Shown here: piece by piece, positions 25,816-61,988 of the stretch
Numbering within the stretch: position 1 is the stretch's first letter
How the letters are laid out: the number at the start of each line of letters is the position of its first letter
Virus record (IMG/VR): IMGVR_UViG_2932189381_000001
Location: 1 to 64,000 of that record
From: a virus
Taxonomy: Duplodnaviria > Caudoviricetes
DNA length: 64,000 nucleotides
Strand: one strand, 5' to 3'
Notes under the pieces: model-generated
Seen by the model: the letters and a program-made list of their open reading frames with translations, nothing else
Database searches by the model: none
Told to the model about the DNA's origin: nothing
Translations under genes and position numbers: made by a program

Positions 25816-26319
25816 TTAGGCGACAGCCTTTTCAGCGACCTTCCGCAGCCATGCGGCCCGGGACAGCCCCTCCGTCTTCGCTGCGGACTCGATCTTGTCG
25901 AGGAGGTCGCGCGGGTACGCCACATTGATCGTGGGACCAACCGCCGGCCTGCCGCCCTTGGAGTCCGGGCCAGACTCGTCCGGGGTGTCGGGGAACCACT
26001 TCTCCAGTTCCGCCTCCGCCTCCGTCCCGCCGCTCTTGACCATCCATTCGCGGGCCTCGTCGTCGGTGAGGAAGCGCCACACGTTGGGGCCGTTGAACTC
26101 GGGGCGGGAGTCCTGGTTCTCGACCCAGCGCCCGCCGCTGGTGCGGTACAGCTGCGCCCGGTTGACCTGCATGCCGGAGATGACGCCCCGCATGACCTGT
26201 CCGTCCCAGCGGGAGGACTCTTCGAGGATGTGTTCGGCGGCGTCCAGGTCGAACCAGCCGAGGCGGTCGTAGTCGCCGTCGTAGTTCATTTCGGTGCTGT
26301 AGATCGTGATGCGGTTCAT
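25816..26319 (-). CDS. Protein with C-terminal ribbon-helix-helix (CopG-like) domain
   Basis: GGRPAVGPTINVAYPRDLLDKIESAAKTEGLSRAAWLRKV. Confidence 0.8.
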   Translation of the reverse strand: MNRITIYSTEMNYDGDYDRLGWFDLDAAEHILEESSRWDGQVMRGVISGMQVNRAQLYRTSGGRWVENQDSRPEFNGPNVWRFLTDDEAREWMVKSGGTEAEAELEKWFPDTPDESGPDSKGGRPAVGPTINVAYPRDLLDKIESAAKTEGLSRAAWLRKVAEKAVA

Positions 26320-26358
26320 GGCTACTCCGGGTCAGGTAGTGGGGTGGTGTGGGGTTCG

Positions 26359-26622
26359 TCAGCGGTCGTTGTCGGCGGGCTTCTGGAGTCGGGCGAGCTG
26401 CTCGCGCAGCTTCTGGATCTCGTCGCTCTGCTCCCTGATCACCTGGTCCTGGGCGGTGATCGTGCGGTTCCGGTCGGCCACGCGGTCGTTCAGTGCGGCG
26501 ATCTGGGCGCGCTGCCTTTCGATCTTGGCGTCCTGCTTGGCGATCTGACGCTTCTGTCCTTCGATCTTGGTGAGCAGGTCTTCCTTGCTGGAGTCCTGGT
26601 TGACGCGGAAGGAGGCGGTCAT
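26359..26622 (-). CDS. Small coiled-coil protein
   Basis: Continuous heptads; RBS GAAAGG. Confidence 0.7.
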   Translation of the reverse strand: MTASFRVNQDSSKEDLLTKIEGQKRQIAKQDAKIERQRAQIAALNDRVADRNRTITAQDQVIREQSDEIQKLREQLARLQKPADNDR

Positions 26623-26673
26623 GGCGGGTGCCTTTCTGGGTTCGCGGGTGGCGGTCAGAGGGTGGTCGGGCTG

Positions 26674-27504
26674 TCAGTAGTCGCCCTTCAGGGAGGTGAT
26701 GTAGGTGGAGGCGTCGGCCTTGGACATCTCCTCGATGCCGGCGCGGTCGGTGGGGCCGTAGAAGAAACCGCCGCCCTCACCGGAGCACTCGCGGCGGGCG
26801 AGGAGGGTGAGGATGAACTCGACCTGCTTCGGGGTGGCCAGGGGGCCCTTGGTGCGGCGGGCCTCCTCGAGCTGGGCTTCGCGGGCCTCACGGACGGCAG
26901 CCTCGGCGGCTTCGATGGCGTCCTGTTCGGCCTTCTTCTGGATGCGCTCCGCGGCGCCCGCAGCGTGCTGGGTGGCCCACTGGATGAGGATGTCGGCCTT
27001 GGCGGTGGCGGTGGGGTCGGCGTCCGCGTTGATCTTCTGGTCGAGGTTGCGCGGGTCGCCTTCGGTGGAGCCGGTGACGCGCCAGTAGGTGGAGCGGTCC
27101 ATGCGGCCGGCGCGGGGGATGGTCTTCTCGATACGGAACCCGGCGGGGGTGTTCTCGTAGAACCGGGCGTAGAACTCGGCGTGGGCGCGGCTGTAGAAGG
27201 TGGCGTCGTAGATGCGGGAGTCCTTGCCGGGGCCGTAGCCGGCGGGGGTGCCGTCGGTGCGGACGATGGTCCAGGTGGTGCGCTCCTCGCCGTACTTGAC
27301 GGTGGTGCCCTGCTCGAGGCGGTAGGTGGTCTCGGTCATGCGGGCCTTCCTCTGGCCGATGGCGATGCGGTGGGTGAGGGAGGCGGTGTCGATGACCCAC
27401 TGGCCGGCGACCTTGGTGGCGGCGATGACGCCGCGGCGGCACCAGGCGCGGATGGTGCGGATGGTGACGTTGGCCTGAGTGGCGGCGGCAGTGGTGTTCA
27501 TCAT
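26674..27504 (-). CDS. HTH_17 (Xis-like) N-terminal domain protein
   Basis: MNTTAAATQANVTIRTIRAWCRRGVIAATKVAGQWVI; C-terminal ATPKQ...MSKADAS.YI. Confidence 0.8.
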   Translation of the reverse strand: MMNTTAAATQANVTIRTIRAWCRRGVIAATKVAGQWVIDTASLTHRIAIGQRKARMTETTYRLEQGTTVKYGEERTTWTIVRTDGTPAGYGPGKDSRIYDATFYSRAHAEFYARFYENTPAGFRIEKTIPRAGRMDRSTYWRVTGSTEGDPRNLDQKINADADPTATAKADILIQWATQHAAGAAERIQKKAEQDAIEAAEAAVREAREAQLEEARRTKGPLATPKQVEFILTLLARRECSGEGGGFFYGPTDRAGIEEMSKADASTYITSLKGDY

Positions 27505-27522
27505 GGTTTCCCTCCCCGTGGG

Positions 27523-27577
27523 GTTTTCGATACTGAAAACCTAGAGGAGGGGGTGAGGGGTTGTCAATACTGAAAAC
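27523..27577 (-). promoter_or_regulatory. Consensus sigma70-type promoter flanked by two 18-bp palindromic operators
   Basis: TTGACA (27567-27562)-18 nt-TAGGTT (27543-27538); boxes GTTTTCGATACTGAAAAC 27523-27540 and GTTGTCAATACTGAAAAC 27560-27577. Confidence 0.8.
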
Positions 27578-27583
27578 GCAAGG

Positions 27584-27610
27584 AGCCTCCCGGTCATCGA
27601 CCGGGAGGCT
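27584..27610 (-). terminator. Hairpin closing the mini-array transcript
   Basis: AGCCTCCCGGTC-ATC-GACCGGGAGGCT overlapping the last repeat. Confidence 0.65.
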
Positions 27611-27793
27611 CAACCCCGCGAGTGCGGGGAGCAGCTACCAACACCCCTAAGCCTGGGGCCACCCCCGCTGACGCGGGGAGCAGAACCAACTCACGCCCTA
27701 CGTAGGGCCACCCCCACATCGGCGGGGAAGAGGCCGCTTCCCAGCAACCTCCGTGTCCATCGACTGGAACACCCCCGCAGCGGCGGGGAGCAG
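27606..27793 (-). CRISPR. cas-less type I-E-like CRISPR mini-array: 4 repeats, 3 spacers (32, 20, 20 nt)
   Basis: 29-nt repeats at 27765-27793, 27704-27732, 27655-27683, 27606-27634; minus-strand consensus CTGCTCCCCGC-N4-GCGGGG(G/T)TG-N5. Confidence 0.85.
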
Positions 27794-27816
27794 CGCCGGT
27801 CTCCCGGCGGGCCACC

Positions 27817-27838
27817 ACTATGGCACGTGGCACCGACA
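27817..27838 (-). promoter_or_regulatory. RecA-NDp/PafBC-like promoter driving the mini-array
   Basis: TGTCGGTG-CCACGTGC(8 nt)-CATAGT; followed by leader hairpin CGCCGG-GAGA-CCGGCG. Confidence 0.65.
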
Positions 27839-27906
27839 GCTCGCAGGGAAACCGACAGCCCGTCAGGCCCGCGCCACCTCGAGCGGCGCGGGCACCGGCT
27901 GGGCGC

Positions 27907-28668
27907 CTACCGAGGGAACCGCGTCAGCCACGCAGGGAGCGGCTTGTCGTCGGCCCAGTAGTGCAGCAGCGCGTACTTGTACGACAAGAGGTCCACGGCC
28001 CGCACCGAGTGCAGCGCTTCCGGCTCCTCCCGACCGAGCTGCGCCAGAGCCCGCTGCCGCTTGTCCCGGTACACCTGGGGCCGCTTCCGCTCAAACTGCA
28101 GCAGCAGCCGGCGCAGCTGGTCGTCGTCGAGCTGGTTCGCCGACGCGTACAGGCCGTCGAGTTCCAACCGCATCCGCTTCTCGCGCGCGTCCTCGCCCGC
28201 GCGAGCGGCAGCGAGCGCGGAGGAATGTTGGTCGCCGGCATCTTCTTCATCCGTACTTCTTCCGTCACTACTTACTGAAGAGGTACCGCCCGCCGACGTC
28301 GCGCCGACCGACGTGCCGCCGACCGACGTGCCGCCAGCGGTACCCCGGTCCTGCGGTACGTCGTACACCTCAAGCACGGTGATGAAGCGTCCTCGAGGAC
28401 CCTTCTCCTTCCGGCGGATCATGTATCCCGCCGCCTCCAATTCGGCGAAGGCTGCGCGCAGTCCACGCCGCCCCTCGCCGACCACATCGCCGCGGTGCCG
28501 CCGTGCACGGTCCGACAGGGCGTCGGCGTTCGTCTCCCAGCCCGACGGCCGGCTCAGTAGCTCGGCCAGCACGCCGCGCGCCAAGTACGTGAGCCGGTCG
28601 TCTCGCAGCAGCGCGTTCGGCAGGATGGTGAAGTTGTCCGCTGGTCTTGAGCGGCGGATCTTCAGCAC
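27907..28668 (-). CDS. Second replication-initiator-like wHTH protein
   Basis: RRSRPADNFTILPNALLRDDRLTYLARGVLAELLSRPSGW...ELEAAGYMIR. Confidence 0.7.
   Translation of the reverse strand: MLKIRRSRPADNFTILPNALLRDDRLTYLARGVLAELLSRPSGWETNADALSDRARRHRGDVVGEGRRGLRAAFAELEAAGYMIRRKEKGPRGRFITVLEVYDVPQDRGTAGGTSVGGTSVGATSAGGTSSVSSDGRSTDEEDAGDQHSSALAAARAGEDAREKRMRLELDGLYASANQLDDDQLRRLLLQFERKRPQVYRDKRQRALAQLGREEPEALHSVRAVDLLSYKYALLHYWADDKPLPAWLTRFPR
28283..28344. repeat. 15-nt tandem repeats inside rep-like gene (iteron candidates)
   Basis: GTGCCGCCGACCGAC-like x4, encoding GGTSV repeats; next to an AT-richer patch. Confidence 0.55.
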
Positions 28669-30025: not shown

Positions 30026-30781
30026 ATGGTGAAGGATCCAGCGCAGGGCAAGACTCCGCGCTACGTAGTGATCGCGGATGAGCTGCGTGCGCGGATCAAG
30101 GCCGGCGAGTTCTCGGAGACGGGCAAGCTCCCGAGCGAGCGAGTGCTCACTGAGGAGTTCGACGCGGCCCGGAACACGATCAGGGATGCGCTCCAGCTGC
30201 TACGCGTCGACGACCTGATCGAATCGCGCGGCGGATCGGGTGTGTATCTGCGCAGCTTCCAGCGTATCCAGCAGGACGCCGTCGAGCGCCTGTCTCGGGA
30301 ACAGTGGGGCGCCGGCCGTGCCATCTGGGACAAGGATCTCCAGGGCCGTCCCCGCAGTGAAGACGTGAAGGTGTTCGAGGCGGACCCGCCCGAGCATGTG
30401 GCCCGGACTCTTGGTGTTCAGGGGCAGAAGGTCTGGTGTCGGGACAAGCTCTACCGGGCCGAAGGGCGCATCACCATGCACTCGGTGGCCTGGTATCCGG
30501 CTGACCTCGCCGAAGGTACGGCGATCACCGAGCAGAACACGGGTCCAGGTGGCGCCTATGCCCGGCTGGATGAGGTCGGCCATGGGCCTGCTCGGTTCAG
30601 CGAGGGGATCGAGGTGCGGCTCCCGCTATCGGCTGAGTCGAAGACGCTGGGCATCACGATGAGCACACCGATCATCCTTATCGTCCGAACGGCCTACGAC
30701 TCGGAGGATCGCCCGGTCGAGGTCAATGAGATGAAGCTCGACTCGGACAGCTACAGGCTGATCTACAACTTCCCCTCCTGA
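30026..30781 (+). CDS. KorSA/TraR-like GntR (HutC, UTRA) repressor
   Basis: PRYVVIADELRARIKAGEF...LPSERVL...RNTIRDALQLL; UTRA with RTAYDSEDRPVEV. Confidence 0.88.
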   Translation: MVKDPAQGKTPRYVVIADELRARIKAGEFSETGKLPSERVLTEEFDAARNTIRDALQLLRVDDLIESRGGSGVYLRSFQRIQQDAVERLSREQWGAGRAIWDKDLQGRPRSEDVKVFEADPPEHVARTLGVQGQKVWCRDKLYRAEGRITMHSVAWYPADLAEGTAITEQNTGPGGAYARLDEVGHGPARFSEGIEVRLPLSAESKTLGITMSTPIILIVRTAYDSEDRPVEVNEMKLDSDSYRLIYNFPS

Positions 30782-30797
30782 CCTGCCCGTTACCGCT

Positions 30798-30829
30798 TAG
30801 CCCCCGGCTTCACGGTCGGGGGCTTTCTT
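30798..30829 (+). terminator. Intrinsic terminator
   Basis: AGCCCCCGGC-TTCACG-GTCGGGGGCT-TTCTT. Confidence 0.75.
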
Positions 30830-30839
30830 GTGTCTGCGC

Positions 30840-30904
30840 AACCTGTCTAGAACCAATCCGTTGACCGGAGCTGCCTGGACTGTTTAAGTGGTCCTAGACA
30901 GGTT
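30840..30904 (+). promoter_or_regulatory. Transfer-operon promoter with inverted GntR-type boxes
   Basis: AACCTGTCTAGAACCA (30840-30855) and its near-perfect inverse TGGTCCTAGACAGGTT (30889-30904) flanking TTGACC; related boxes at ~29908 and ~29985. Confidence 0.7.
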
Positions 30905-30951
30905 CCGGCGACCGGGGCCTACCGACCGAGCTATGCCCGAAAGGAGATCCC

Positions 30952-31188
30952 ATGCGCGACACCGCCCCGGCCACCACGGAGAAGCTGCTCCCGGCCGCCG
31001 ACGTGGCGAGCGCCCTGAACCTCTCGCTCACCGCCGTGTACCGCCTCGTCCGCAGTGGCGACCTGCCGAGCCACCGCTTCGGCAAGGGCAAGATCCGCCC
31101 GCGTGGCGTCCGTATCCCGGAGTCCGCCATCGAGGCGTACCTGAACGGCTCCCTCACCGCCCCGACTGCCGCCGAGGAGGCCGCGTGA
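30952..31188 (+). CDS. Excisionase-like HTH_17 protein
   Basis: LLPAADVASALNLSLTAVYRLVRSGDLPSHRFG...VRIPESAIEAYL. Confidence 0.85.
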   Translation: MRDTAPATTEKLLPAADVASALNLSLTAVYRLVRSGDLPSHRFGKGKIRPRGVRIPESAIEAYLNGSLTAPTAAEEAA

Positions 31189-31613
31189 TGACCGCCCCCG
31201 CCCCGACCGCCCCGCTTCCCTCCGCCGCCGCCGAGGCGCTGGCCCGGTTGGAGCGTGCGTTCCTCCCGCTGGCCGTGGTGCGTGCGGTGACCCGCTACGA
31301 GACCGCGGCACTCCGGTTCGACGAGCTGTCGGCGCGCCCGGCGTCGAAGCTGTCGCCGGCGGAAGCCGACGCGCTGCGCCTGGCGCAGGAGACGATGACG
31401 GCCGAGTTCGCCGTGCTGGCGAAGGCAGGCCGGACGGATCTGCTGGCGCCGCTGGAGGTGGCCACCGCGTACCGGTACGCGGCAGCGCACTGCCGGGACC
31501 TCGCGGCGGTCGCCGACTTCGACGGTTGCCTCGCCGCGCAGGACGAGATGGCCATGTGTCGCTGCCGACTGGAGCAGGCGGGTCGGCTCGACCTGATCGA
31601 GGTCGTCCGGTGA
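31188..31613 (+). CDS. Hypothetical protein
   Basis: Internal repeat AGRTDLL/AGRLDLI; coupled start. Confidence 0.6.
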   Translation: MTAPAPTAPLPSAAAEALARLERAFLPLAVVRAVTRYETAALRFDELSARPASKLSPAEADALRLAQETMTAEFAVLAKAGRTDLLAPLEVATAYRYAAAHCRDLAAVADFDGCLAAQDEMAMCRCRLEQAGRLDLIEVVR

Positions 31614-31819
31614 GCGCCGACCTGGCCCGTCTGTCGGCGGCGCGGGAGACGGCGGACCGGATCGTCGCCCAGATCAGTGACTGGGACGGTGGGGAAGCAC
31701 CCCGTCTGCTGGTCACGGTCATCGACCCGGAGACCCGGGAGCGGCTGGGGACGGCGTTCGTCACCATCCGTCCCGAGCCGGCCGCCCGGCCCCTGCGCCT
31801 GGTGCGGGAGGCGTCGTGA
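31610..31819 (+). CDS. Hypothetical protein
   Basis: GTGA overlaps. Confidence 0.5.
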   Translation: MSADLARLSAARETADRIVAQISDWDGGEAPRLLVTVIDPETRERLGTAFVTIRPEPAARPLRLVREAS

Positions 31820-32127
31820 GCGACCACGAGAAGACGAAGGAGCCGCTGCCGCAGCGCCCGAGGGGCCCGCACCCCTACCTGTTCGGCTCCGCGCTGTGAG
31901 CCCCGCCGAGCAGGGCGCGGCTGCGAAGGCGCTCGCGGAGCAGACCCGGCAGCGGATCGCGGCTGCGAAGGCTGCCGCTGCTGCTGCTGAGGCCGCCCGT
32001 AAGGCCACCGGCCGGCGCTAACCCCCTGATCGCCGTGGGGTGGCGGATGTTTCGGCTCCCCTCCGTCCCGCCACCCCGCGGCCCCAACCCCCATCTATCC
32101 CGGCTTGACCATCCGAGGAGATCAGCC

Positions 32128-32460
32128 ATGCCTTATTCCGCCGAGATCATCGAGCCGACCGCCTGGCCCGAGGGCGTCATCGCCCGCTACCTCACCGTCG
32201 GCGGCGGCACCATCGACCTCGCCCTCAAGCAGATCCGCCACACCTTCCCCGACGGGATCTTGGGCACCCGCGGCCTGACCTCGGCAACGTGCACCGGCTG
32301 CCCGGCCACTGGCGACTTCCCGCACTGGCGCAGCCGCACGGGCGTGTGGGCCGGCACGTGGGATGAGGACATCCCCGCCGAGGAGGTCGAAGCCGACGCC
32401 CGCGCGTGGGCCCAGGCCCACGCGGAGACCTGCCGGGCCATGCCCCGACCCGCCGCCTGA
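32128..32460 (+). CDS. Hypothetical protein (CxxC...HAETC)
   Basis: RYLTVGG...CTGC...ARAWAQAHAETCRAMP, RBS GAGGAG. Confidence 0.7.
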   Translation: MPYSAEIIEPTAWPEGVIARYLTVGGGTIDLALKQIRHTFPDGILGTRGLTSATCTGCPATGDFPHWRSRTGVWAGTWDEDIPAEEVEADARAWAQAHAETCRAMPRPAA

Positions 32461-32513
32461 CCAACCCCACCCCCCTCACCCCCACCACTTCGACCCGGAA
32501 GGGCTCACCTGCC

Positions 32514-32756
32514 ATGTCTCCTTACCTGTTCTCCGCCGACCTGGGCGTCACCGACCTCGGCCAGCACGTCCGCGCCACCACGACGATCGCCGAGTTGGAC
32601 GCCGAAGCCCGAGTGCTGTCCATCAGCGACCTGTTCGCCGGCTACGCCGCCGCCGTCGCGTCCGGCGACCGGTCCCGGATGGCGCAGATCCGCCTCGCCG
32701 CCGGCCCCGACCTGCTCGCCGAACTCGACTGGGTCAAGTACCCGGCCGCCGCGTGA
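32514..32756 (+). CDS. Hypothetical protein
   Basis: RBS, codon bias. Confidence 0.6.
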   Translation: MSPYLFSADLGVTDLGQHVRATTTIAELDAEARVLSISDLFAGYAAAVASGDRSRMAQIRLAAGPDLLAELDWVKYPAAA

Positions 32757-32977
32757 TGGGCGTCGACGTGTGGGAGGGCCGGCCCCTCGAGGAGCGCCGG
32801 CCGGTGAGCAGGCCGCTCGCCGAGGAGATCCACTACCGGCTGTACGACCAGGCCGGGCGGCTTCTCAGCTTCAACTCGACGAACAGTCTCGCCTCCCTGG
32901 TCGCGGACGTCGCCGTCACAGCGCGGGAGTACCCGGCCGGCCGTATTACCGCCGTCCAGTACGACGGCCCCGCCTGA
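32756..32977 (+). CDS. Hypothetical protein
   Basis: TGATG coupling. Confidence 0.5.
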   Translation: MGVDVWEGRPLEERRPVSRPLAEEIHYRLYDQAGRLLSFNSTNSLASLVADVAVTAREYPAGRITAVQYDGPA

Positions 32978-33114
32978 CCCCCCGTTCCGCCGTCGCACGG
33001 TCCATGACCCCCCGTCTCCGTGCGGCGGCAGCCCCGGCCCGGCCACCACGGGCGTAGCCGCAAAGGCAACCGGGGCGCTGCACCACCCGACCACCAACCC
33101 GAAGGGAGCCCGTC

Positions 33115-33324
33115 ATGGGCCTGTTCAAGAAGTCCGCCGAGGAGAAGGTCGCGGTCGCCGAGATGCGCGCCGCGGACCGTCGCCTGAACGAGAACTCCGA
33201 CCGGGAGCGCCGCGCCGGTATCCGGGACGAGACGCCCGAGTACCAGCGCCTCAACGCCGCCGCGAACGAGGCCGCCGCGAAGGTGTCGTTCTGGCACGGC
33301 GGCACCCGGCGCAAGACCCGCTGA
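33115..33324 (+). CDS. Hypothetical protein
   Basis: RBS GAAGGGAG. Confidence 0.65.
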   Translation: MGLFKKSAEEKVAVAEMRAADRRLNENSDRERRAGIRDETPEYQRLNAAANEAAAKVSFWHGGTRRKTR

Positions 33325-33423
33325 CCGGCTGTCCGCGGCGCCCGGCCCGTACCGGGCGCCAAGGAGAACTGGCGCAGCACCACCCCCACCCCACCGACCA
33401 TCCACTCGAAGGGATCACCCGTC

Positions 33424-34785
33424 ATGACTGCCAGCCCGCCGAAGCTGAACGGCCAGGCCAGGCCGCCCGTGTTGGGGGACTGGCAGCCCATAGGAGCCGC
33501 CACCCCCGAGCCCGAGACCTCCGCGAGCACCGAGTCGGCGCCGCAGCAGGACAGTGAGCTCGTCGCCCAGGCGCAGGCCGAAGCGATCCGCGCGCAGGCG
33601 TGGGCGGAGTCGGAGGAGCGTCGCCTCGCCGCCGAGGCGGAGAAGGAAGCCGCGCTGAAGCGCGCCGACGCCGAAGCTGAGGCGATCCGGGTGAAGGCGG
33701 AGGAGGAGGCGCGGAAGCTGCGCCTCGCCAACGACCGGCAGGAGCGCAAGGCTGCCGAGGAGCAGGCCGCGTCCGAGGCGCGGATCGCCGAGAGCCGGCA
33801 GCGGAAGGCGGACGCCGACCGCGCCCGCGCCGACGCCGACCGTCAGGCCAAGGAGCAGCAGCAGACCGAGGCCGAGAAGGCTGAGGCTGTCGAGAAGTCC
33901 AGCGAGCGGTGGCGGAACGTGGCCCTCGGCTTCTATGGACTGTGCGCCGCGGTCGCCCTGCCGGTGCAGATGGCCGCGTTCTACGACCCGGACGCCAAGT
34001 ACCTCCTCGTCGCTCCGGTCTTCATCGAGGTGATCGCCCTGGTCGCGCTCGTGGGTGCCGCGGCTGCGGTCACGGACGGGCGCCCGCAGTGGCACTACCG
34101 GCTCGTCGCCTGGGTCGGTGCGCTCACTGCTGCGACGATCAACATCGTTCACGGCCTGGACGCCTTCGACCCCGCGACCGCGTTCGGTACCGCCCTCGCC
34201 TCCGTCGCCGGCCCCGGCATGTGGGACCTCCACGAGCACGGCCGTCTCCGGAAGCGCAACGGCAAGCCGTCGTGGCGAGAGCGCCGCGCGCAGCGGAAGG
34301 AAGCCGAGCGGATTGCCGCTGAGAAGGTCGCGGAAGAGGTGCGCGAGGCGGAGCGCCAGGCGTACCGCGAGAAGGCCGAACGCGAGGCCGTGCAGCAACT
34401 GACCGAGCGTCGCGCGAGCCTCTTCCCGAAGGTGTGGCAGCACGCCGAGAAGCTCGCCGCCGACCTCGGCGAGACGACCGTCACCCAGGCCATCTGGGAG
34501 CGCGCCAAGCTCGACGTCGAGGGCGCGAAGCCGGGCGAGTCCGCCGAGGTTCTGCGGATGCGTAACGCCGCCGAAATGAGGGTCGAAGCCGCCCGCGAAA
34601 AGCGGTGCGTAAACGGATCATCACAGCAGGTCGCATCGCAAGTGCTCGGCCCGAAGAAGACCCGCGTCTACAACCCTCCTGCGCGCCGCGGAGTGCGCAC
34701 GTCGGGCGACTCCCCGAAGCAGTCGCCGGGAGCCCGCCGACAGGCATCCATCGCCGCCAAGAACGCCCGCCAGAACGCCAACTAA
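33424..34785 (+). CDS. Pra/SpdB-like (DUF2637-type) coiled-coil membrane protein
   Basis: Long N-terminal coiled coil, about 4 TM helices (ATINIVH...ASVAGPGMWDLH), upstream of traB. Confidence 0.7.
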   Translation: MTASPPKLNGQARPPVLGDWQPIGAATPEPETSASTESAPQQDSELVAQAQAEAIRAQAWAESEERRLAAEAEKEAALKRADAEAEAIRVKAEEEARKLRLANDRQERKAAEEQAASEARIAESRQRKADADRARADADRQAKEQQQTEAEKAEAVEKSSERWRNVALGFYGLCAAVALPVQMAAFYDPDAKYLLVAPVFIEVIALVALVGAAAAVTDGRPQWHYRLVAWVGALTAATINIVHGLDAFDPATAFGTALASVAGPGMWDLHEHGRLRKRNGKPSWRERRAQRKEAERIAAEKVAEEVREAERQAYREKAEREAVQQLTERRASLFPKVWQHAEKLAADLGETTVTQAIWERAKLDVEGAKPGESAEVLRMRNAAEMRVEAAREKRCVNGSSQQVASQVLGPKKTRVYNPPARRGVRTSGDSPKQSPGARRQASIAAKNARQNAN

Positions 34786-34808
34786 CTCACCCCTGGAGTG
34801 ATCAAACT

Positions 34809-35270
34809 ATGAACGCCTCTCTTCGCCGCATCGCCGTCTCGACCACCGCCACCGTCGCCCTCCTCGGAGGGGCCGCCGCGACCGCCACCGCCGCCGCTCC
34901 GGAGCACGAGGCGACCGTCGTCGCGATCGCCCGCACCGACATCCAGCCCGGCCTCACCAACGGGGTCGCTCCCGCCAACGGTGGCAGCGGCGCACCGCTG
35001 AACGGCCCGCAGCAGCAGATGCCCGCCGGCTACCCGCAGCAGATCCAGACCCAGGCGTCCGGAGCGGCGATCGGCACGGGTGTTGCCGCCATCGCGATCC
35101 TCGGCCTCGTCGTCTTCTTCCGGGTCAAGGGCGGCCACCTGAAGGTCGGTGACGCGGTCGTCGTCACGATCCTCGGTGTCGCGCTCGCCGGAACCGTGAT
35201 CGGCGGCATGGCCGATCAGCTCACGGACACCGGTGTCGCTTCGCTCAGCAACATCCTCGGCGGCCTCTGA
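34809..35270 (+). CDS. Spd-like signal-peptide/membrane protein
   Basis: Signal-like N-terminus plus two TM segments. Confidence 0.6.
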   Translation: MNASLRRIAVSTTATVALLGGAAATATAAAPEHEATVVAIARTDIQPGLTNGVAPANGGSGAPLNGPQQQMPAGYPQQIQTQASGAAIGTGVAAIAILGLVVFFRVKGGHLKVGDAVVVTILGVALAGTVIGGMADQLTDTGVASLSNILGGL

Positions 35271-35331
35271 TCCACCCCTCGTGCGGGGCCCGGACCGGGC
35301 CCCGCCCCTGACCCCTGGAAGGACAGGCCCC

Positions 35332-37596
35332 GTGGCCACCGAAACCGAGTACCAGCCCTACGAGCCGTTCGAGCCGGTCGACTGGCTCGCCGAGGAGCCG
35401 GCCAAGCCCGCAGAGCCGTCCCGCGCCGACCGCGCCAAGGTGGCGTTCAAGGAGCAGCGCGGCCACGCCGCCACCCGCACGAAGGACTGGCTCGCGGGTG
35501 GCGACCTCGACCAGGTCACCGTCTTCGAACTCGCCGCCAAGAAGAAGCAGCGCAAATACGACAGCGGGCTGACCCAGCAGGAGCGGACTGCTGCCGAAGC
35601 TCGCGCCCGCTTCGAAGTCGCCAAAACCCAAGCCGAAGCCAGCGAGAAGGGCGGTAACGCCAGCAGCCTGGCCGGCTACGCCGGGAGGACCGCCGCGGCA
35701 GAAGCCAAGCTCGAGCAGTTGCGAGCCCGGCCTGTCCTCCCGCCGACCGACTGGGAGATCGCCGCCGCCCGCACCAGTAAGAAGGCAACCCGTGCCGCGA
35801 TCGTCGCCGGGGGCGGACTGGGTGCCATGTCCGTCCTGGGCGGGGCGATAGAGCAGGCCGCGACCGGGCAGCCGATGCTCCTTGCCGTGGTCACCACCGC
35901 CGCCGGGTACGGCTGGTACCTGATCTCCCGCCCGTTCGTCCGCGGTCAGGCTGGTGAGGCCCCTTTCGGGATGGCCCCGGCGAGCCTGCCCGCCACGTTC
36001 CAGGCGGAGCCGACCGGGGGAGCGATGGGCGTCGGATCGCACGTCGTCATGAACGTCGAGCAGCTCGCCGACGACGCCAAGCCCTTCCCGCTGCGGGGCG
36101 CGTCCACGCCTGAGCGGCTCGCCGAATGCGTCCTCCTCGCCGCCCGCGCCGAGAACGTGCCGATCGTCGAGGTGTCGGACGTGACCCGTCAGCCCTGGGG
36201 CTGGCAGTGCACGGTACGCGTCGGCGAAGGCACTCCCGAGGCGATCATTTCGAAGGCGGGTGACCTCGAGACCCGGTTCGATCTGAAGACGAACGGTGTC
36301 CGCCCGCAGCCCCTCAGGGCGCGTCGCGCCTGCGCGATCCTGCGCTTGGTCGAGGGCGACCCGTTCGCCACCGCCCCCGGCCTGCCCTACCGGGCCCCCA
36401 AGTCCCTGTCGATCACCGACGCGTTCCGTATCGGCACCAGTGTCGGCGGCGACCCGCTCGAGCTGTCCCTGGCCGGCGTCATGGGCCTGTGGGTGGCGGC
36501 GTCCGGCGGCGGCAAGACCGGCATCCTGCAGGCGCTCGCCGAAGGAGTGACGGCCTGCCGGGACAACATCACCATCGACCTGGATCCGTTCGGGGACGGC
36601 CTGGAGGACCTCGGTGACGCCGTCCGGATCACCGCGCGCAGCAACGAGCAGATCGAAGCGGTCCTGCTGTTCTTCCTGGTCATGGCCAAGGGCCGGGCCC
36701 GGCTGCGGGCGAAGCTCGGCATGGGCAAGAAGTGGAAGCCCAGCCCGAAGCACCCCGCCGTCACGATCTTCTTCGACGAACTGCCGAAGGCCAGCACCCT
36801 GGCCAAGCGCCTGTACAACGACCTGCTGCTCGTCGGCCGCAAGGAGCTGATCGTCGTGGAGGCCGCGTCGCAGGGCGGCCAGAGCTCCTACCTCGGAGCG
36901 AACATCGCCCAGATGGTCGCCCTCAAGGCAGTCGGCCCCTGCAAGGTCGAGGACACCAGGTCGGTCCTCGGGGACGGCTCCGTGAAGGAGGGCTACCTCC
37001 CGCACAAGCTGTCCCCGGCGACCCAGACCGACCCCAAGGACGCCGGGCACATCTTCATCCAGGGCGTGCCCGGGATGGCGGACGAGCCGATCGAGTACGC
37101 CGTCCATGAGGTGCCGTCCGCGGTACTGCGGCAGCTCGGGCAGGAGCGGCTTGAGGCCGGCCTGCTGGACCCGGACCAGGACAGCCTCGACGCGATGCGC
37201 GGCGTGGACCTGCCCGAGTACGTCGAGCCGGAGTACGACAAGGACGGCGACCTGAAGAAGCCGGCGCCGGTCGAGCTCCTCACGTGGGAGCAGCTGCTGC
37301 GCCTGTGCGATGCCGAGCCGCCCGCGGGTGCCGAGCTGTCGGACGGCCCAGCGCGGGCTGCGGTCGAGGACGCGGTGACCGTCATGGAGAAGGCGGGCGT
37401 CGACCGGATGAAGACCGAGGTGCTCCTTGCCGCACTCCAGGAGTACGACCCGGACGCCTACGGGGAGTTGGGTGTCGACGAGTTCAAGGCGCTGCTGAAG
37501 AAGGCGGGCGCCGGGGCGCCGCTGACGCTCGGTCCGATCGGTGAGGAGAAGAATCCGCGCGGCTTCAAGCGTGATCGCCTCCGTCACCTCCTGTGA
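35332..37596 (+). CDS. traB: TraB-like FtsK/SpoIIIE conjugative DNA translocase
   Basis: Two N-terminal TMs, Walker A AASGGGKT, Walker B IFFDE, GRK.LI...ASQ, C-terminal wHTH ending NPRGFKR. Confidence 0.85.
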   Translation: MATETEYQPYEPFEPVDWLAEEPAKPAEPSRADRAKVAFKEQRGHAATRTKDWLAGGDLDQVTVFELAAKKKQRKYDSGLTQQERTAAEARARFEVAKTQAEASEKGGNASSLAGYAGRTAAAEAKLEQLRARPVLPPTDWEIAAARTSKKATRAAIVAGGGLGAMSVLGGAIEQAATGQPMLLAVVTTAAGYGWYLISRPFVRGQAGEAPFGMAPASLPATFQAEPTGGAMGVGSHVVMNVEQLADDAKPFPLRGASTPERLAECVLLAARAENVPIVEVSDVTRQPWGWQCTVRVGEGTPEAIISKAGDLETRFDLKTNGVRPQPLRARRACAILRLVEGDPFATAPGLPYRAPKSLSITDAFRIGTSVGGDPLELSLAGVMGLWVAASGGGKTGILQALAEGVTACRDNITIDLDPFGDGLEDLGDAVRITARSNEQIEAVLLFFLVMAKGRARLRAKLGMGKKWKPSPKHPAVTIFFDELPKASTLAKRLYNDLLLVGRKELIVVEAASQGGQSSYLGANIAQMVALKAVGPCKVEDTRSVLGDGSVKEGYLPHKLSPATQTDPKDAGHIFIQGVPGMADEPIEYAVHEVPSAVLRQLGQERLEAGLLDPDQDSLDAMRGVDLPEYVEPEYDKDGDLKKPAPVELLTWEQLLRLCDAEPPAGAELSDGPARAAVEDAVTVMEKAGVDRMKTEVLLAALQEYDPDAYGELGVDEFKALLKKAGAGAPLTLGPIGEEKNPRGFKRDRLRHLL

Positions 37597-58773: not shown

Positions 58774-60525
58774 ATGCCTGTCGCCACCGCCGAGCCCGAA
58801 GTCCCAGAGAAGGTAGAGCCGTTCACGTTGGGGCCCACCTGGAAGAGGGGGCAAGACGGTCGGTTCATTCTTCCCGAGTACACCCTCGGTTGGCACGCTC
58901 TTGCTTGGACGTCGACGTACCTGCAGCACTACGCAGGAAGCCCCTGGCGATACACCCCTGAACAAGCGCGTTTGACCCTTTGGTGGTACGCGATGGACCC
59001 GGAGACGAACCGGTTCCTGTGGCGTGACGGTGTGATCCAACGCTTGAAGGGCTGGGGCAAGGACCCGGTCGTGGCGTCGTGGGGAGCGTTCGAGTTTGTC
59101 GGCCCGTGCCGGTTCGGCGAGGTCGCCGACGAGGGCAATGAGTGGGGGGTCCCTGCCGGTCAGCCTCTGGGTGTGCAGCATCCGGCGGCGTGGGTGCAGA
59201 TGGCGGCGGTCAGCCAGGACCAGACCCGCAACACGATGACCATTTTCCCGAGCTTGCTGAGTAAGCGGGCGATCGAGGAGTACCGCATCGACCTCGGCAA
59301 GGAGATCATCTATGCCGACAAGGGGCGGGCCCGGATCGAAGCCGTGACGTCGTCACCACGCGCTCTGGAGGGTGGCCGGCCGACGGCCACCTACCCCAAC
59401 GAGACGCACCACTGGCTGGAGTCGAACCAGGGCCACGAGATGGACGCCGTGATCGAGCGCAATGCAACGAAGTCGGCGGACGGTCAGTCCCGCACGCTAG
59501 CGATCACGAATGCGTTCGAGCCGGGCGAGGACTCGGTGGCAGAGCGCGCCCGTGACGCCTATGAAGCGATGGAAGCCGGTCGGGTCGCGGACACGGGCCT
59601 GTTCTACGACACGCTGGAGGCTCCGCCTGAGGCGAAGCTGACGGAGGCGTGGATCGAGCCGACGCTCAGGGCGGTACGCGGGGACTCGACGTGGCTGGAC
59701 ATCAGCCGGCTGAAGGCGTCGATTCTGGACCCGCGGAACCCTCCGAGCCGCAGTCGGCGCTTCTGGTACAACCAGATCGTCGCTGCTGAGGACGCGTGGA
59801 TGGCCCGCTACGAGTGGGACGCCTGCAAGCGCGAAGGCGTGCAGTTGGCCGACAGTGACGAGGTCGTCCTGTTCTTCGACGGCTCCAAGTCCGACGACGC
59901 GACAGGGCTGTGCGCCTGCCGTATGTCGGACGGTCTCGTGACCGCTCTGGGTGTGTGGCAGAAGCCTGCGAACTGGCCAGCGCCGAACACGCCGGGGTTC
60001 GTGCCGTACCAGATCCCGCGGGATGAGGTGCACGGCATGGTGGAGAATGCGTTCGCCCGGTACCGGGTGCTGGCGTTCTTCGCGGACCCGGGCTCGGGCC
60101 AGGGCGATGACGGCGAGATGTACTGGGATTCCTTCATCGACCTGTGGGGTCAGACGTGGGGGGCGAAGTTGGCTCTCCGGTCGGTGCTGGCGGGTCCGAA
60201 GGCGCATGCGGTGCGTTGGGACATGCGTGACTCGCGGAATCAGGAGACGTTCACGGAGGCCGTGAAGCGCACCCACGCGGACGTGCTGGAGCGGACGCTC
60301 ATCCATGACGGGCACAAGGTGCTCCGCACCCACGTGATCAACGCGCGCCGCCGGACGAATCGTTGGGGGATCACGATCGGCAAGGAGCACCGTGAGTCCG
60401 CCCGAAAGATCGACCTCGCCATCTGCATGGTCGGGGCGCGGATGCTGCGCCGGATGATCCTCAACTCACCGAAGCGACCCAAGAAGCGCACGCCGGGCAA
60501 GGGGAGGGTGGTGGTGCTGCGATGA
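58774..60525 (+). CDS. terL: Terminase large subunit
   Basis: QRLKGWGKDP Walker A, AAVSQDQT, NETHHW, FFDGSKSDDAT nuclease, KID. Confidence 0.95.
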   Translation: MPVATAEPEVPEKVEPFTLGPTWKRGQDGRFILPEYTLGWHALAWTSTYLQHYAGSPWRYTPEQARLTLWWYAMDPETNRFLWRDGVIQRLKGWGKDPVVASWGAFEFVGPCRFGEVADEGNEWGVPAGQPLGVQHPAAWVQMAAVSQDQTRNTMTIFPSLLSKRAIEEYRIDLGKEIIYADKGRARIEAVTSSPRALEGGRPTATYPNETHHWLESNQGHEMDAVIERNATKSADGQSRTLAITNAFEPGEDSVAERARDAYEAMEAGRVADTGLFYDTLEAPPEAKLTEAWIEPTLRAVRGDSTWLDISRLKASILDPRNPPSRSRRFWYNQIVAAEDAWMARYEWDACKREGVQLADSDEVVLFFDGSKSDDATGLCACRMSDGLVTALGVWQKPANWPAPNTPGFVPYQIPRDEVHGMVENAFARYRVLAFFADPGSGQGDDGEMYWDSFIDLWGQTWGAKLALRSVLAGPKAHAVRWDMRDSRNQETFTEAVKRTHADVLERTLIHDGHKVLRTHVINARRRTNRWGITIGKEHRESARKIDLAICMVGARMLRRMILNSPKRPKKRTPGKGRVVVLR

Positions 60526-61988
60526 CCCTGTCCATCCCTGAGCTGCCGCTGGTGACGCTGTCGGATGACGAGCTGGCCCTGGTGCAGATGCTGCGGGCGG
60601 ACATGCTGCGGGACCGGTGGGCGCTCCAACTGCGGGACGCCTACTTCAACGGCGAACAGTTGGTCCGCGACCTCGGCATATCGATCCCGCCGCAGCTCAA
60701 GGGCTTGCACACGGTCATCGGCTGGCCGCGCGTGGGCATCGAAAGCCTGGAGGAGCGCCTCGACCTGGAGGCGTTCCGGTGGGCGGACGGCGCGGACTCT
60801 GCGGAGCTGTCGGAGATCGCCGAGGCGAACGACCTCTTCGACGAGTCGAGCCTCGCCCACTTGGATGCGCTGGTGTACGGCCGGGAGTATCTGGCGGTCG
60901 GCTCGGGGGATTGCGATGGGGAGTGCCCACCGCTGATCTCTGCCGAGTCGCCGCTGGACATGACCCTCATGTGGGACGCCCGCTTGCGGATGGGTACGGC
61001 GGCCCTCCGGGAGTGCGCGGCAGACAGCTACATCGAGTCCGGTCCCGAGGAGCGGATGCTGGTCCTGTATCTGCCGGATCAGACGGTGATGTGCCTGCCG
61101 TCGGAGGGCGGCGGGTGGGAGGTCGTCGACCGCGACATGCACAACCTCGGGGTCGTGCCGGTCGTCAGGATGGCGAACCGCCAGCGCACCGCGGACCGGG
61201 TCGGAAAGTCGGAGATCACCCCGGAGGTCATGTCCATCACGGACGCTGCATGCCGGCGCTTGATGGGCATGGAGGTCGCCGCGGAGTTCTTCGGCGCTCC
61301 GCAGCGGTACATCCTCGGCGCCTCCGAGTCGGCGTTCCAGGACGCGGACGGTACGGCGAAGTCGGCGTGGGAGACGTACATCGGGCGTGTCCTGGCGTTG
61401 GAGCGGGACGAGGACGGCCAGGTCCCGTCGGTGGGCCAGTTCGCGGCTCATGACCCGACCGGCATGACGAAGATCATTGACCTGTATGCGCGGATCATGT
61501 CCAGCCAGTTTGGTCTGCCGCCGCACATGCTCGGCTACACCACCGACAACCCTGCCTCCGCAGATGCCATCCGGTCCACCGAGGCGAAGCTCGTCAAACG
61601 CTCCGAGCGGCGGATCCGCCGCTTCGGCAAGGCCTGGCAGGACGCTATGCGTCTCGCCCTGTGGGTGCGGGACGGCGAACCTCCGGACAAGACGCGGCGG
61701 ATCGAGACGGTGTGGCGGAACCCGGCGACACCGACGGTGGCCGCCCAGGTGGACGCCACGGTCAAGCTAGTCCAGGCCGGTGTCCTGCCTGCCGACTCGG
61801 ACGTCACGCTGGAGATGGCCGGCTTCACCGAGGCGCAGCGGCAGAGGATCGCCGTGGATCGGCGCCGCACCGCTGGCCGGGCCGGGAGCAGTGCGCTGAT
61901 GGATCGCCTCGCCGAGATCGGCGCGGGCGCCGACAGTGCGAGCACGGAGCCGTCGGAGGCCAGCCTTGGCATCGACGACCTCGGATAG
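60522..61988 (+). CDS. Portal protein (SPP1 Gp6-like)
   Basis: Follows terL; VIGWPR, ALVYG, GVVPVV, G.SEI, AEFFGAPQR, NPASADAI. Confidence 0.92.
   Translation: MTLSIPELPLVTLSDDELALVQMLRADMLRDRWALQLRDAYFNGEQLVRDLGISIPPQLKGLHTVIGWPRVGIESLEERLDLEAFRWADGADSAELSEIAEANDLFDESSLAHLDALVYGREYLAVGSGDCDGECPPLISAESPLDMTLMWDARLRMGTAALRECAADSYIESGPEERMLVLYLPDQTVMCLPSEGGGWEVVDRDMHNLGVVPVVRMANRQRTADRVGKSEITPEVMSITDAACRRLMGMEVAAEFFGAPQRYILGASESAFQDADGTAKSAWETYIGRVLALERDEDGQVPSVGQFAAHDPTGMTKIIDLYARIMSSQFGLPPHMLGYTTDNPASADAIRSTEAKLVKRSERRIRRFGKAWQDAMRLALWVRDGEPPDKTRRIETVWRNPATPTVAAQVDATVKLVQAGVLPADSDVTLEMAGFTEAQRQRIAVDRRRTAGRAGSSALMDRLAEIGAGADSASTEPSEASLGIDDLG

Follow-up and report, generated by a model that had tools for sequence, protein, structure and literature searches.

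A stretch of 64,000 nucleotides (nt), hereafter the window, comprises the first 64 kb of the 88,037-bp IMG/VR provirus record IMGVR_UViG_2932189381_000001 and carries, on its minus strand (27793-27606), a small array of four repeats resembling those of type I-E CRISPR (clustered regularly interspaced short palindromic repeat) arrays. This locus is probably a viral CRISPR RNA (crRNA)-like anti-CRISPR array of the Cracr kind, borne on a Streptomyces phage-plasmid. Its units yield two concrete candidate guide-target pairs, in which the first guide (S1) is matched with casA sites of one host I-E class, flanked by the protospacer-adjacent motif (PAM) AAG, and the third guide (S3) with AAC-flanked casA sites of a second class. 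Viral hijacking of CRISPR autoregulation would then extend to Streptomyces, in which type I-E systems, scored by Cse1, were found in 165 of the 401 sampled genomes (~41%).

Array organization and repeat stems

The array, read directly, consists of four 29-nt repeats (R1-R4) enclosing spacers of 32, 20 and 20 nt (S1-S3), exactly the letters given in an earlier note on this DNA, and a repeat search recovered the copies at spacings of 61, 49 and 49. A promoter motif of RecA-NDp/PafBC-like geometry, TGTCGGTG-N8-CATAGT, spans 27838-27817 and is followed by a leader hairpin, CGCCGG-GAGA-CCGGCG (27809-27794), positioned directly 5' of R1. R1 (27793-27765), assigned by its identity to repeats and CreR elements, is a pseudo-repeat of I-E class 1 with the handle GTGTTCCA, and precedes S1 (27764-27733), a 32-nt pseudo-spacer that appears to mimic a class-1 host CreR guide. 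R2 (27732-27704), with a G-U pair in its stem, supplies the 5' handle of S2 (27703-27684), a 20-nt pseudo-spacer for which no target was found in the searches described below. R3 (27683-27655), a pseudo-repeat with the class-2-like handle GTGGCCCC, is followed by S3 (27654-27635), a 20-nt pseudo-spacer that, by its target match, appears to mimic a class-2 host CreR guide. The 3' end of the terminal pseudo-repeat, R4 (27634-27606), forms part of the stem of an intrinsic terminator (27611-27573) composed of a 13-bp stem (27611-27583), a 3-nt loop and a T-run. This is the one terminator-type site found in 27300-28000, against 0.2 expected in these 700 nt, in keeping with the earlier description of a cas-less I-E-type mini-array with its own terminator.

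The exact stem CCCCGC-N4-GCGGGG occurs at only three places in the 88,037-bp record, all within the array. R2 matches it with one mismatch, corresponding to the G-U pair; four unrelated sites in the record also match at one mismatch. Reading and stem count together confirm that the stem is kept in all four repeats, with one G-U pair, while all four loops differ. A natural variant of the whole array, 94% identical, is present in a soil metagenome contig (X2), with 28 differences over 494 nt and no gaps. The 24 of these differences that are listed all leave the stems, of repeats and terminator alike, unchanged. Six listed changes affect R3 (three in the loop, two in the handle and one at the first base), the first base of R4 is also changed, and the other listed changes in the array fall at S1 positions 3, 8 and 9, at S3 position 3 and in the terminator loop (three, 27596-27598). 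Stems that are kept while loops vary, both within the array and among the X2 differences listed, support the proposed selection on repeat structure.

An open reading frame overlapping the array (27594-27833) has a GC content at third codon positions of 0.64, below the 0.82-0.95 of the flanking genes, and is therefore not coding. An Rfam search of 27000-28500 at a permissive threshold returned only two weak, unrelated matches, and no self-targeting site was found in the 88-kb record for S1 (up to nine mismatches) or for S2 and S3 (up to five). The predicted processed S1 unit (window 27712-27772, minus strand) has an unusual amount of structure (z = -3.5, a fold equalled in 1 of 200 shuffles); the 3' half of S1 pairs with the beginning of R2, and the 5' part of S1 with the handle. 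By eye and without statistics, short hairpins whose loops are GNRA-like were also noted ahead of the first repeat in L093, L020 and L073.

Guides, host CreR elements and casA-promoter sites

Two I-E repeat classes were distinguished in Streptomyces hosts. Class 1 includes the plasmid-borne locus L011, composed of cas3, casA and a 52-copy array with the repeat GTCCTCCCCGCCGACGCGGGGGTGTTCCG, to which R1 is identical at 24 of 29 positions by direct reading. In class 2, cas3 is fused to or abuts casA, and the repeat is CTGCTCCCCGCACCCGCGGGGATGGTCCC (seen in genomes G003 and G005), which R3, R4 and their handles resemble. The class-2 loci with S3-type targets have cas3 and casA separate, with the target upstream of casA.

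Two pseudo-repeats located 61-67 nt apart, antisense to casA and between cas3 and casA, are present in 12 of the 31 class-1 casA-upstream loci examined (L011, L142-L144, L149, L151, L154, L155, L159-L161 and L171). In 11 of these 12, a partial target, AAG-flanked and matching the initial ~17 nt of the pseudo-spacer, is located between the element and casA. We assign the elements to CreR because their layout matches that of the CreR autorepressor described at type I-E loci by Liu et al. (bioRxiv 10.1101/2024.10.29.618823). Unit 1 of the array (R1-S1-R2) aligns gap-free to class-1 CreR elements over 90 columns, 66 of which are identical to the element of L143. R1 is identical to the first L143 pseudo-repeat at 23 of 29 positions, and S1 to the L143 pseudo-spacer at 20 of 32, with 9 identities in the first 11 positions and 18 in the first 21, not strictly contiguous. 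The 21-nt core of R2, including the G-U pair, is identical to the second pseudo-repeat of the host CreR in L011 and L142. Judged by this alignment, unit 1 is a homologue of class-1 host CreR.

A scan of 67 cas loci revealed a single AAG-flanked match to S1 with at least 12 of 15 pairing positions, which is the L143 CreR target upstream of casA (13/15, within the first 17 nt); shuffled S1 guides gave 0.2 hits per shuffle in the same scan. Type I-E Cascade leaves every sixth guide position (6, 12, 18) flipped out and unpaired, and the mismatches of S1 to the equivalent site in L226 lie at positions 6, 8, 9 and 12. Matches to the S1-type CreR with up to three mismatches were found in 22 genomes. 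Five of 20 loci were inspected, some located elsewhere than intended; L228 and L233 read as coding, and L226 showed the target site.

The canonical 32-nt length of S1 would also suit an offensive mini-CRISPR array that borrows host Cascade-Cas3 to destroy rival phages or plasmids, a use for which mini-arrays in inter-virus conflict are described in the literature and which the earlier note had considered for this guide. S1, however, produced only chance-level hits (E ~1-9) when compared with 50,697 records of phages and 72,556 of plasmids, and the patterns of S1, S2 and S3 with every sixth position as a wildcard found two, one and three viral contigs, respectively, all unrelated coding-like DNA without AAG or AAC. 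The guides recur across many elements rather than being unique acquisitions, and all four repeats differ. No credible protospacer emerged from the phage, plasmid and viral-contig searches, and S1 is instead a homologue of a host CreR guide with a casA-promoter match, which makes an attack on competing elements very unlikely.

For the short guides, a first target scan restricted to an AAG PAM gave three hits against 6.4 in controls. Putative targets of the class-2 host elements in L192 and L179, and in L055 by eye, are flanked by AAC, not AAG, which is why the AAG-only scan missed S3. When 107 cas loci were scanned again with AAC, S3 showed a 14/15 match in L137, at the same site that the family-A guides of L017, L087 and L096 match. 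Antisense between its cas3 and casA, L137 has two pseudo-repeats that enclose a 20-nt pseudo-spacer (AGCCTTAGGGGCGTACATAA), with the AAC-flanked target ~300 nt upstream of casA. L246 (G129) possesses its own family-A CreR with the same layout and a 20-21-nt pseudo-spacer, and L245 (G033) holds the target. S3 matches these AAC-flanked targets at 15 of 17 pairing positions in L137 and at 14 of 17 in each of L245 and L246; the three sites (G226, G033 and G129) lie 280-340 nt upstream of class-2 casA. The putative targets of six of six class-2 host elements (L137, L245, L246, L192 and L179 by script, L055 by eye) are AAC-flanked, which suggests AAC as the class-2 PAM. The AAG-like PAM anticipated in the earlier note is thus found at the S1 target, while the S3 targets carry AAC.

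The mismatches of S3 to the L137 target fall at positions 3, 6, 12, 18 and 19, three of the five being every-sixth positions. S3 shares 10 of its first 11 positions, its handle and its guide length with the L137 CreR and, at positions 13-17, extends its match to the target further than the host's own CreR does; S3 position 3 is changed to the target's base in the soil metagenome variant. The conserved host target explains, for S3, the motif shared by the 20-nt guides. The proposal that the two related 20-nt guides act in a CreA/CreR-like or Racr-like manner is most plausible for S3, given its likeness to a class-2 CreR guide and its casA-promoter match; for S2, neither a counterpart nor a target was found in the searches made. 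The 20-nt length, earlier read as the phage's own shortening, already exists in class-2 host CreR, whose pseudo-spacers measure 20-21 nt. Class-2 host regulator guides in general measure 20-21 nt, with one of 32 nt. A single genome, G226, contains both L143, with the S1-type target, and L137, with the S3-type one.

A family-A-type CreR element is present in 1 of the 32 class-2 casA-upstream loci examined (L137), and the family-A motif was found in L184 only among 42 stretches upstream of class-2 cas3. In L184 (G268), the pseudo-repeat preceding a family-A-like guide is heavily degraded; this element, which lies immediately upstream of cas3, may be a decayed host regulator. The array-carrying genomes G003 and G005 showed, by eye, no match in their own cas3 promoters. 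S2 is related to S3 by sequence, in a shifted register, and its search against viral contigs gave one chance-level hit.

Several results weigh against reading the array as a set of CreR-like guides. Positions 8 and 9, at which S1 mismatches the sampled targets, are seed-proximal pairing positions; the host's own CreR also mismatches at both. The presumed partners are rare, with S1-type CreR at 0-1 mismatch in 3 of 401 genomes (G194 among them, unverified) and an S3-type target adjoining casA in 3 of 381. A search of the 381 genomes with the S3 pattern gave 31 places, which does not exceed the count for the reversed pattern used as control, and position relative to casA is the sole criterion that singles out the three S3 sites. 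AAC as the class-2 PAM is inferred from just six sites. Summed over all short guides, AAC/AAG-flanked matches of at least 11/15 are about as frequent as in controls (85 vs 86.7, and 79 vs 75). For S2, the best AAC/AAG-flanked matches in the 107 cas loci (11-12/15) equal the control level, only 4-6 of 17 positions match the three class-2 target sites, and no host CreR counterpart was found. Finally, G001, the genome of the closest syntenic relative, yielded no Cse1 match.

Mini-array family and predicted function

Pattern scans for I-E stems 47-51 nt apart returned 18 viral and 79 genomic loci, ~30 of the latter, picked by eye, being mini-arrays rather than long arrays with one short spacer. 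Many mini-arrays in actinobacterial proviruses and genomes are composed of a promoter, mixed units of 32-33 and 18-22 nt, and a terminator. Spacer lengths were counted in 41 distinct mini-arrays; the loci had been pre-selected for one spacer of 17-23 nt, and therefore only the shape of the distribution within and outside that band counts. Lengths of 14 nt (4 spacers), 17 (1), 18 (5), 19 (4), 20 (27), 21 (15), 22 (3), 23 (2), 30 (1), 31 (2), 32 (23), 33 (9) and 37 (1) were counted, with none of 24-29 nt. The resulting clusters at 14, 20-21 and 32-33 nt fit the 6-nt Cas7 step, and the proposed shortening of spacers by 12 nt agrees with these family-wide peaks. Lengths in homologous loci are accordingly far from random, peaking sharply in the 41 mini-arrays, whereas short spacers in long arrays are flat across 17-23 nt.

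S3-like guides recur across many different elements, and the long guides of L017 and L028 match the sites of L143 and L159, respectively. In the nearest syntenic relative, L073, promoter and leader are the same as here and the downstream helix-turn-helix (HTH) gene is 72% identical; its array holds different units, with spacers of 20, 19 and 14 nt. In a second contig of the X2 soil metagenome, 159 other letters replace 27458-27858, removing the whole array and promoter, so that the array, judged by this related element, is a cassette that can be exchanged at a conserved position. In loose ends from a different metagenome, the same repeats are joined to other known short guides; together with the replaced array, this indicates that the units behave as shuffled modules.

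Degenerate repeats, the mutual relatedness of S2 and S3, as after tandem duplication, and array content that differs even in the syntenic L073 could alternatively be left by a host CRISPR array or CreR that was acquired by recombination and is now a decaying, non-functional remnant. Such a remnant is difficult to reconcile with the array's own promoter and terminator, with stems kept while loops vary, with the sharp 20-21-nt peak that long arrays lack and with the conservation of the same modules across many elements, and we regard it as most improbable. A canonical CRISPR array was also considered and rejected: its repeats all differ, two of its spacers are related, one guide type recurs, and neither cas genes nor protospacers were found in the searches made.

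In 78 short units, pairing of the 5' handle with its own guide exceeds that with permuted guides, to a degree attained in 0 of 5000 permutations, and in within-array guide swaps (n = 33) cognate handle pairing wins 24, loses 8 and ties 1. RNAalifold predicts a second, handle-guide hairpin in 16 family-A units, with only one pair changed on both sides. This family-level pairing could hinder Cas5 binding and would suit a pure Racr-like decoy, in which the hairpins titrate Cas6e along with further Cascade subunits and the guides lack relevant targets; for S2, no target was found in the searches made. Racrs against type I-E have been validated in Pseudomonas (PMC10651486). S1 and S3, however, agree with host CreR guides, and with casA-promoter sites beside a PAM, much better than chance would predict, and the S3 mismatches include the every-sixth positions 6, 12 and 18. 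Handle-guide pairing is present in the host CreR of L137 too, the two window units fold no better than dinucleotide shuffles (z = -0.95 and -0.02), and the alignment holds just the one both-sides change. A pure decoy is, on these grounds, unlikely. The handle-spacer hairpin was also considered as the reason for the conserved 'AGGGGC' and set aside, since it is not significant in the window units and the host target and CreR explain the motif better.

Two further kinds of element were noted during the scans. Two-repeat units in the Streptomyces loci L067, L085 and L070 have a 20-nt guide that is complementary, in its 3' part, to a stretch of their own leader beside a TTGACA box, and the unit of L067 lies downstream of the cas operon; these units are a different kind of crRNA-like element. 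Viral contigs L016, L018, L021 and L015 carry a second mini-array family, with 20-21-nt guides starting TAGTA or TAGAA and a TACAAT-type promoter.

RecA-NDp/PafBC-dependent promoters share a consensus octamer, TGTCRGTG, followed by 8 nt and a -10-like hexamer. The array promoter is one of two exact matches to this pattern in the window, and a motif of identical geometry, TTGTCAGTG-N8-TAGCGT, lies 86 nt upstream of the RecA-domain match in all four Streptomyces genomes checked. This geometry recurs in the leaders of 7 of 59 mini-arrays, compared with 17 of 3000 background windows, and the promoter and leader are those conserved in L073. By motif geometry, the array promoter is predicted to be of the RecA-NDp/PafBC (DNA-damage) type. 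The promoter-like motif claimed earlier is thus present, and its damage type is a prediction from that geometry.

The Cracr assignment implies a defined sequence of events. CreR homology and casA-promoter matches make it most plausible that the guides, as previously suggested, would load host Cascade and act in a CreR-like or anti-CRISPR manner. A single transcript would run from the promoter (27838-27817) to the terminator (27611-27573), host Cas6e would presumably cleave it at each of the four repeat hairpins, and the processed pieces would load into host Cascade. The unit 1 guide would pair partially with the AAG-flanked casA-promoter site of class 1, leading to binding and repression; because the pairing is only partial, repression rather than Cas3 cleavage should follow. 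Unit 3 would act alike on the second I-E class, whose own CreR guide measures 20 nt and whose target is AAC-flanked, with unit 2 as a related 20-nt unit. The net effect would be lowered cas expression in both I-E classes, combined with competition against immune crRNAs for Cas proteins, and the promoter motif suggests possible timing to DNA damage and induction.

A bolder and rather doubtful extension treats the array as a damage-timed, multiplexed device, in which a PafBC-type promoter, on induction, fires one transcript that simultaneously shuts down two co-resident I-E systems of different classes and the 20-nt units without a match (S2 here, the families 'CGTTA.GGGC' and 'TGTGGGGAC' elsewhere) steer host Cascade to non-cas promoters, for example those of other defence genes or rival elements. 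If this were so, host Cascade would serve Streptomyces phage-plasmids as a programmable repressor of general use, and handle-guide pairing would provide a built-in loading control. As a by-product, the analysis gives a map of host CreR-like autorepressors in two Streptomyces I-E classes. Arrays of this kind could explain silent endogenous I-E systems encountered in Streptomyces engineering or actinophage use, and could serve as compact natural off-switches for Streptomyces I-E systems.

Genomic context and comparison with known systems

Family matches in the record include a large terminase, a portal and an FtsK/TraB-like protein, together with a GntR/UTRA regulator and initiator-like proteins. 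The GntR/UTRA regulator and the FtsK/TraB-like protein (window 30026-37596 and 58774-61988) share the element with the large terminase and portal. At the DNA level, the relatives of the record are circular Streptomyces plasmids of 86-99 kb; no DNA relatives were found among phage records, and none by protein were confirmed among viral contigs. The element is phage-plasmid-like, because phage genes, plasmid-type genes and circular plasmid relatives coincide, which points to a phage-plasmid or conjugative phage. The earlier term prophage is correct as to the phage-like genes, but the element looks like a phage-plasmid hybrid. Cas6e, Cas7e and Cse1 families had zero matches across the whole 88-kb record, which bears out, beyond the window, the statement that no cas genes are present there.

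The gene upstream of the array (27907-28668) matches phage replication-initiator or DNA-binding families, and the repeats could in principle be unrelated to CRISPR and serve as iterons or an origin for this initiator-like gene. The units nevertheless align to host CreR elements and I-E repeats and sit between a promoter and a terminator, and the same units elsewhere are not beside such a gene; in L073, the sole syntenic case, the conserved neighbour is the downstream HTH gene. An iteron function is, in consequence, scarcely credible. Three direct repeats, 15-nt-spaced, lie at window 28280-28335, inside the initiator-like gene itself. Directly downstream of the array, a three-gene operon (window 25816-27577, minus strand) encodes an HTH_17 protein of 276 amino acids (aa), a coiled coil of 87 aa and a 167-aa protein with a repressor-like C-terminus, and two 21-nt direct repeats (27520-27540 and 27557-27577) lie in its promoter region. 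This operon could be an aca/acr-like module.

Compared with host CreR elements, unit 1 gives a gap-free alignment to those of class 1, and unit 3 has in common with L137 the features noted above. The window units differ in lying on a mobile element without cas genes, stacked in one array under a different promoter. Sulfolobus viruses reportedly bear mini-CRISPR arrays with spacers against rival viruses, which are said to serve inter-virus conflict. Those arrays, like this one, are small, cas-less, virus-borne and dependent on host Cas proteins; here, by contrast, no rival protospacer was found in the searches made, and the guides match host cas promoters.

Racrs are described as RNA anti-CRISPRs formed by solitary repeat units without target-matched guides (Camara-Wilpert et al. 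2023, PMC10651486). The array resembles them, as there described, in phage-encoded repeat mimicry that would compete for Cas proteins. It differs in being composed of four repeats, at spacings of 61, 49 and 49, with CreR-like guides, rather than a solitary repeat.

The closest counterpart is the viral Cracr array. Liu et al. (bioRxiv 10.1101/2024.10.29.618823) describe among these I-E arrays of two or three guides, as well as guides of reduced length. Differences from that description lie in the host, Streptomyces, a name absent from the main texts of Liu et al. and PMC10651486; in the two matched units, which would address two I-E classes with distinct repeats, handles and PAMs (AAG and AAC) that co-occur in one sampled genome; in the RecA-NDp-type promoter, so classed by its motif; and in one unit without a match. 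The likenesses to the published account are extensive. Both are cas-less, multi-unit, crRNA-like transcription units on a phage or plasmid, outside a CRISPR-cas locus, with degenerate repeats that keep the Cas6 hairpin and resemble host repeats. In both, guides copy host CreR guides (S1 that of L143 and S3 that of L137, not S2) and are partly complementary to the casA promoter beside a PAM (S1 at AAG, 13/15; S3 at AAC, 14-15/17; not S2), different units address different CRISPR-Cas variants, and some guides are shortened. On this comparison, the array most likely belongs to the recently described viral Cracr kind, of which it would be a detailed new example.

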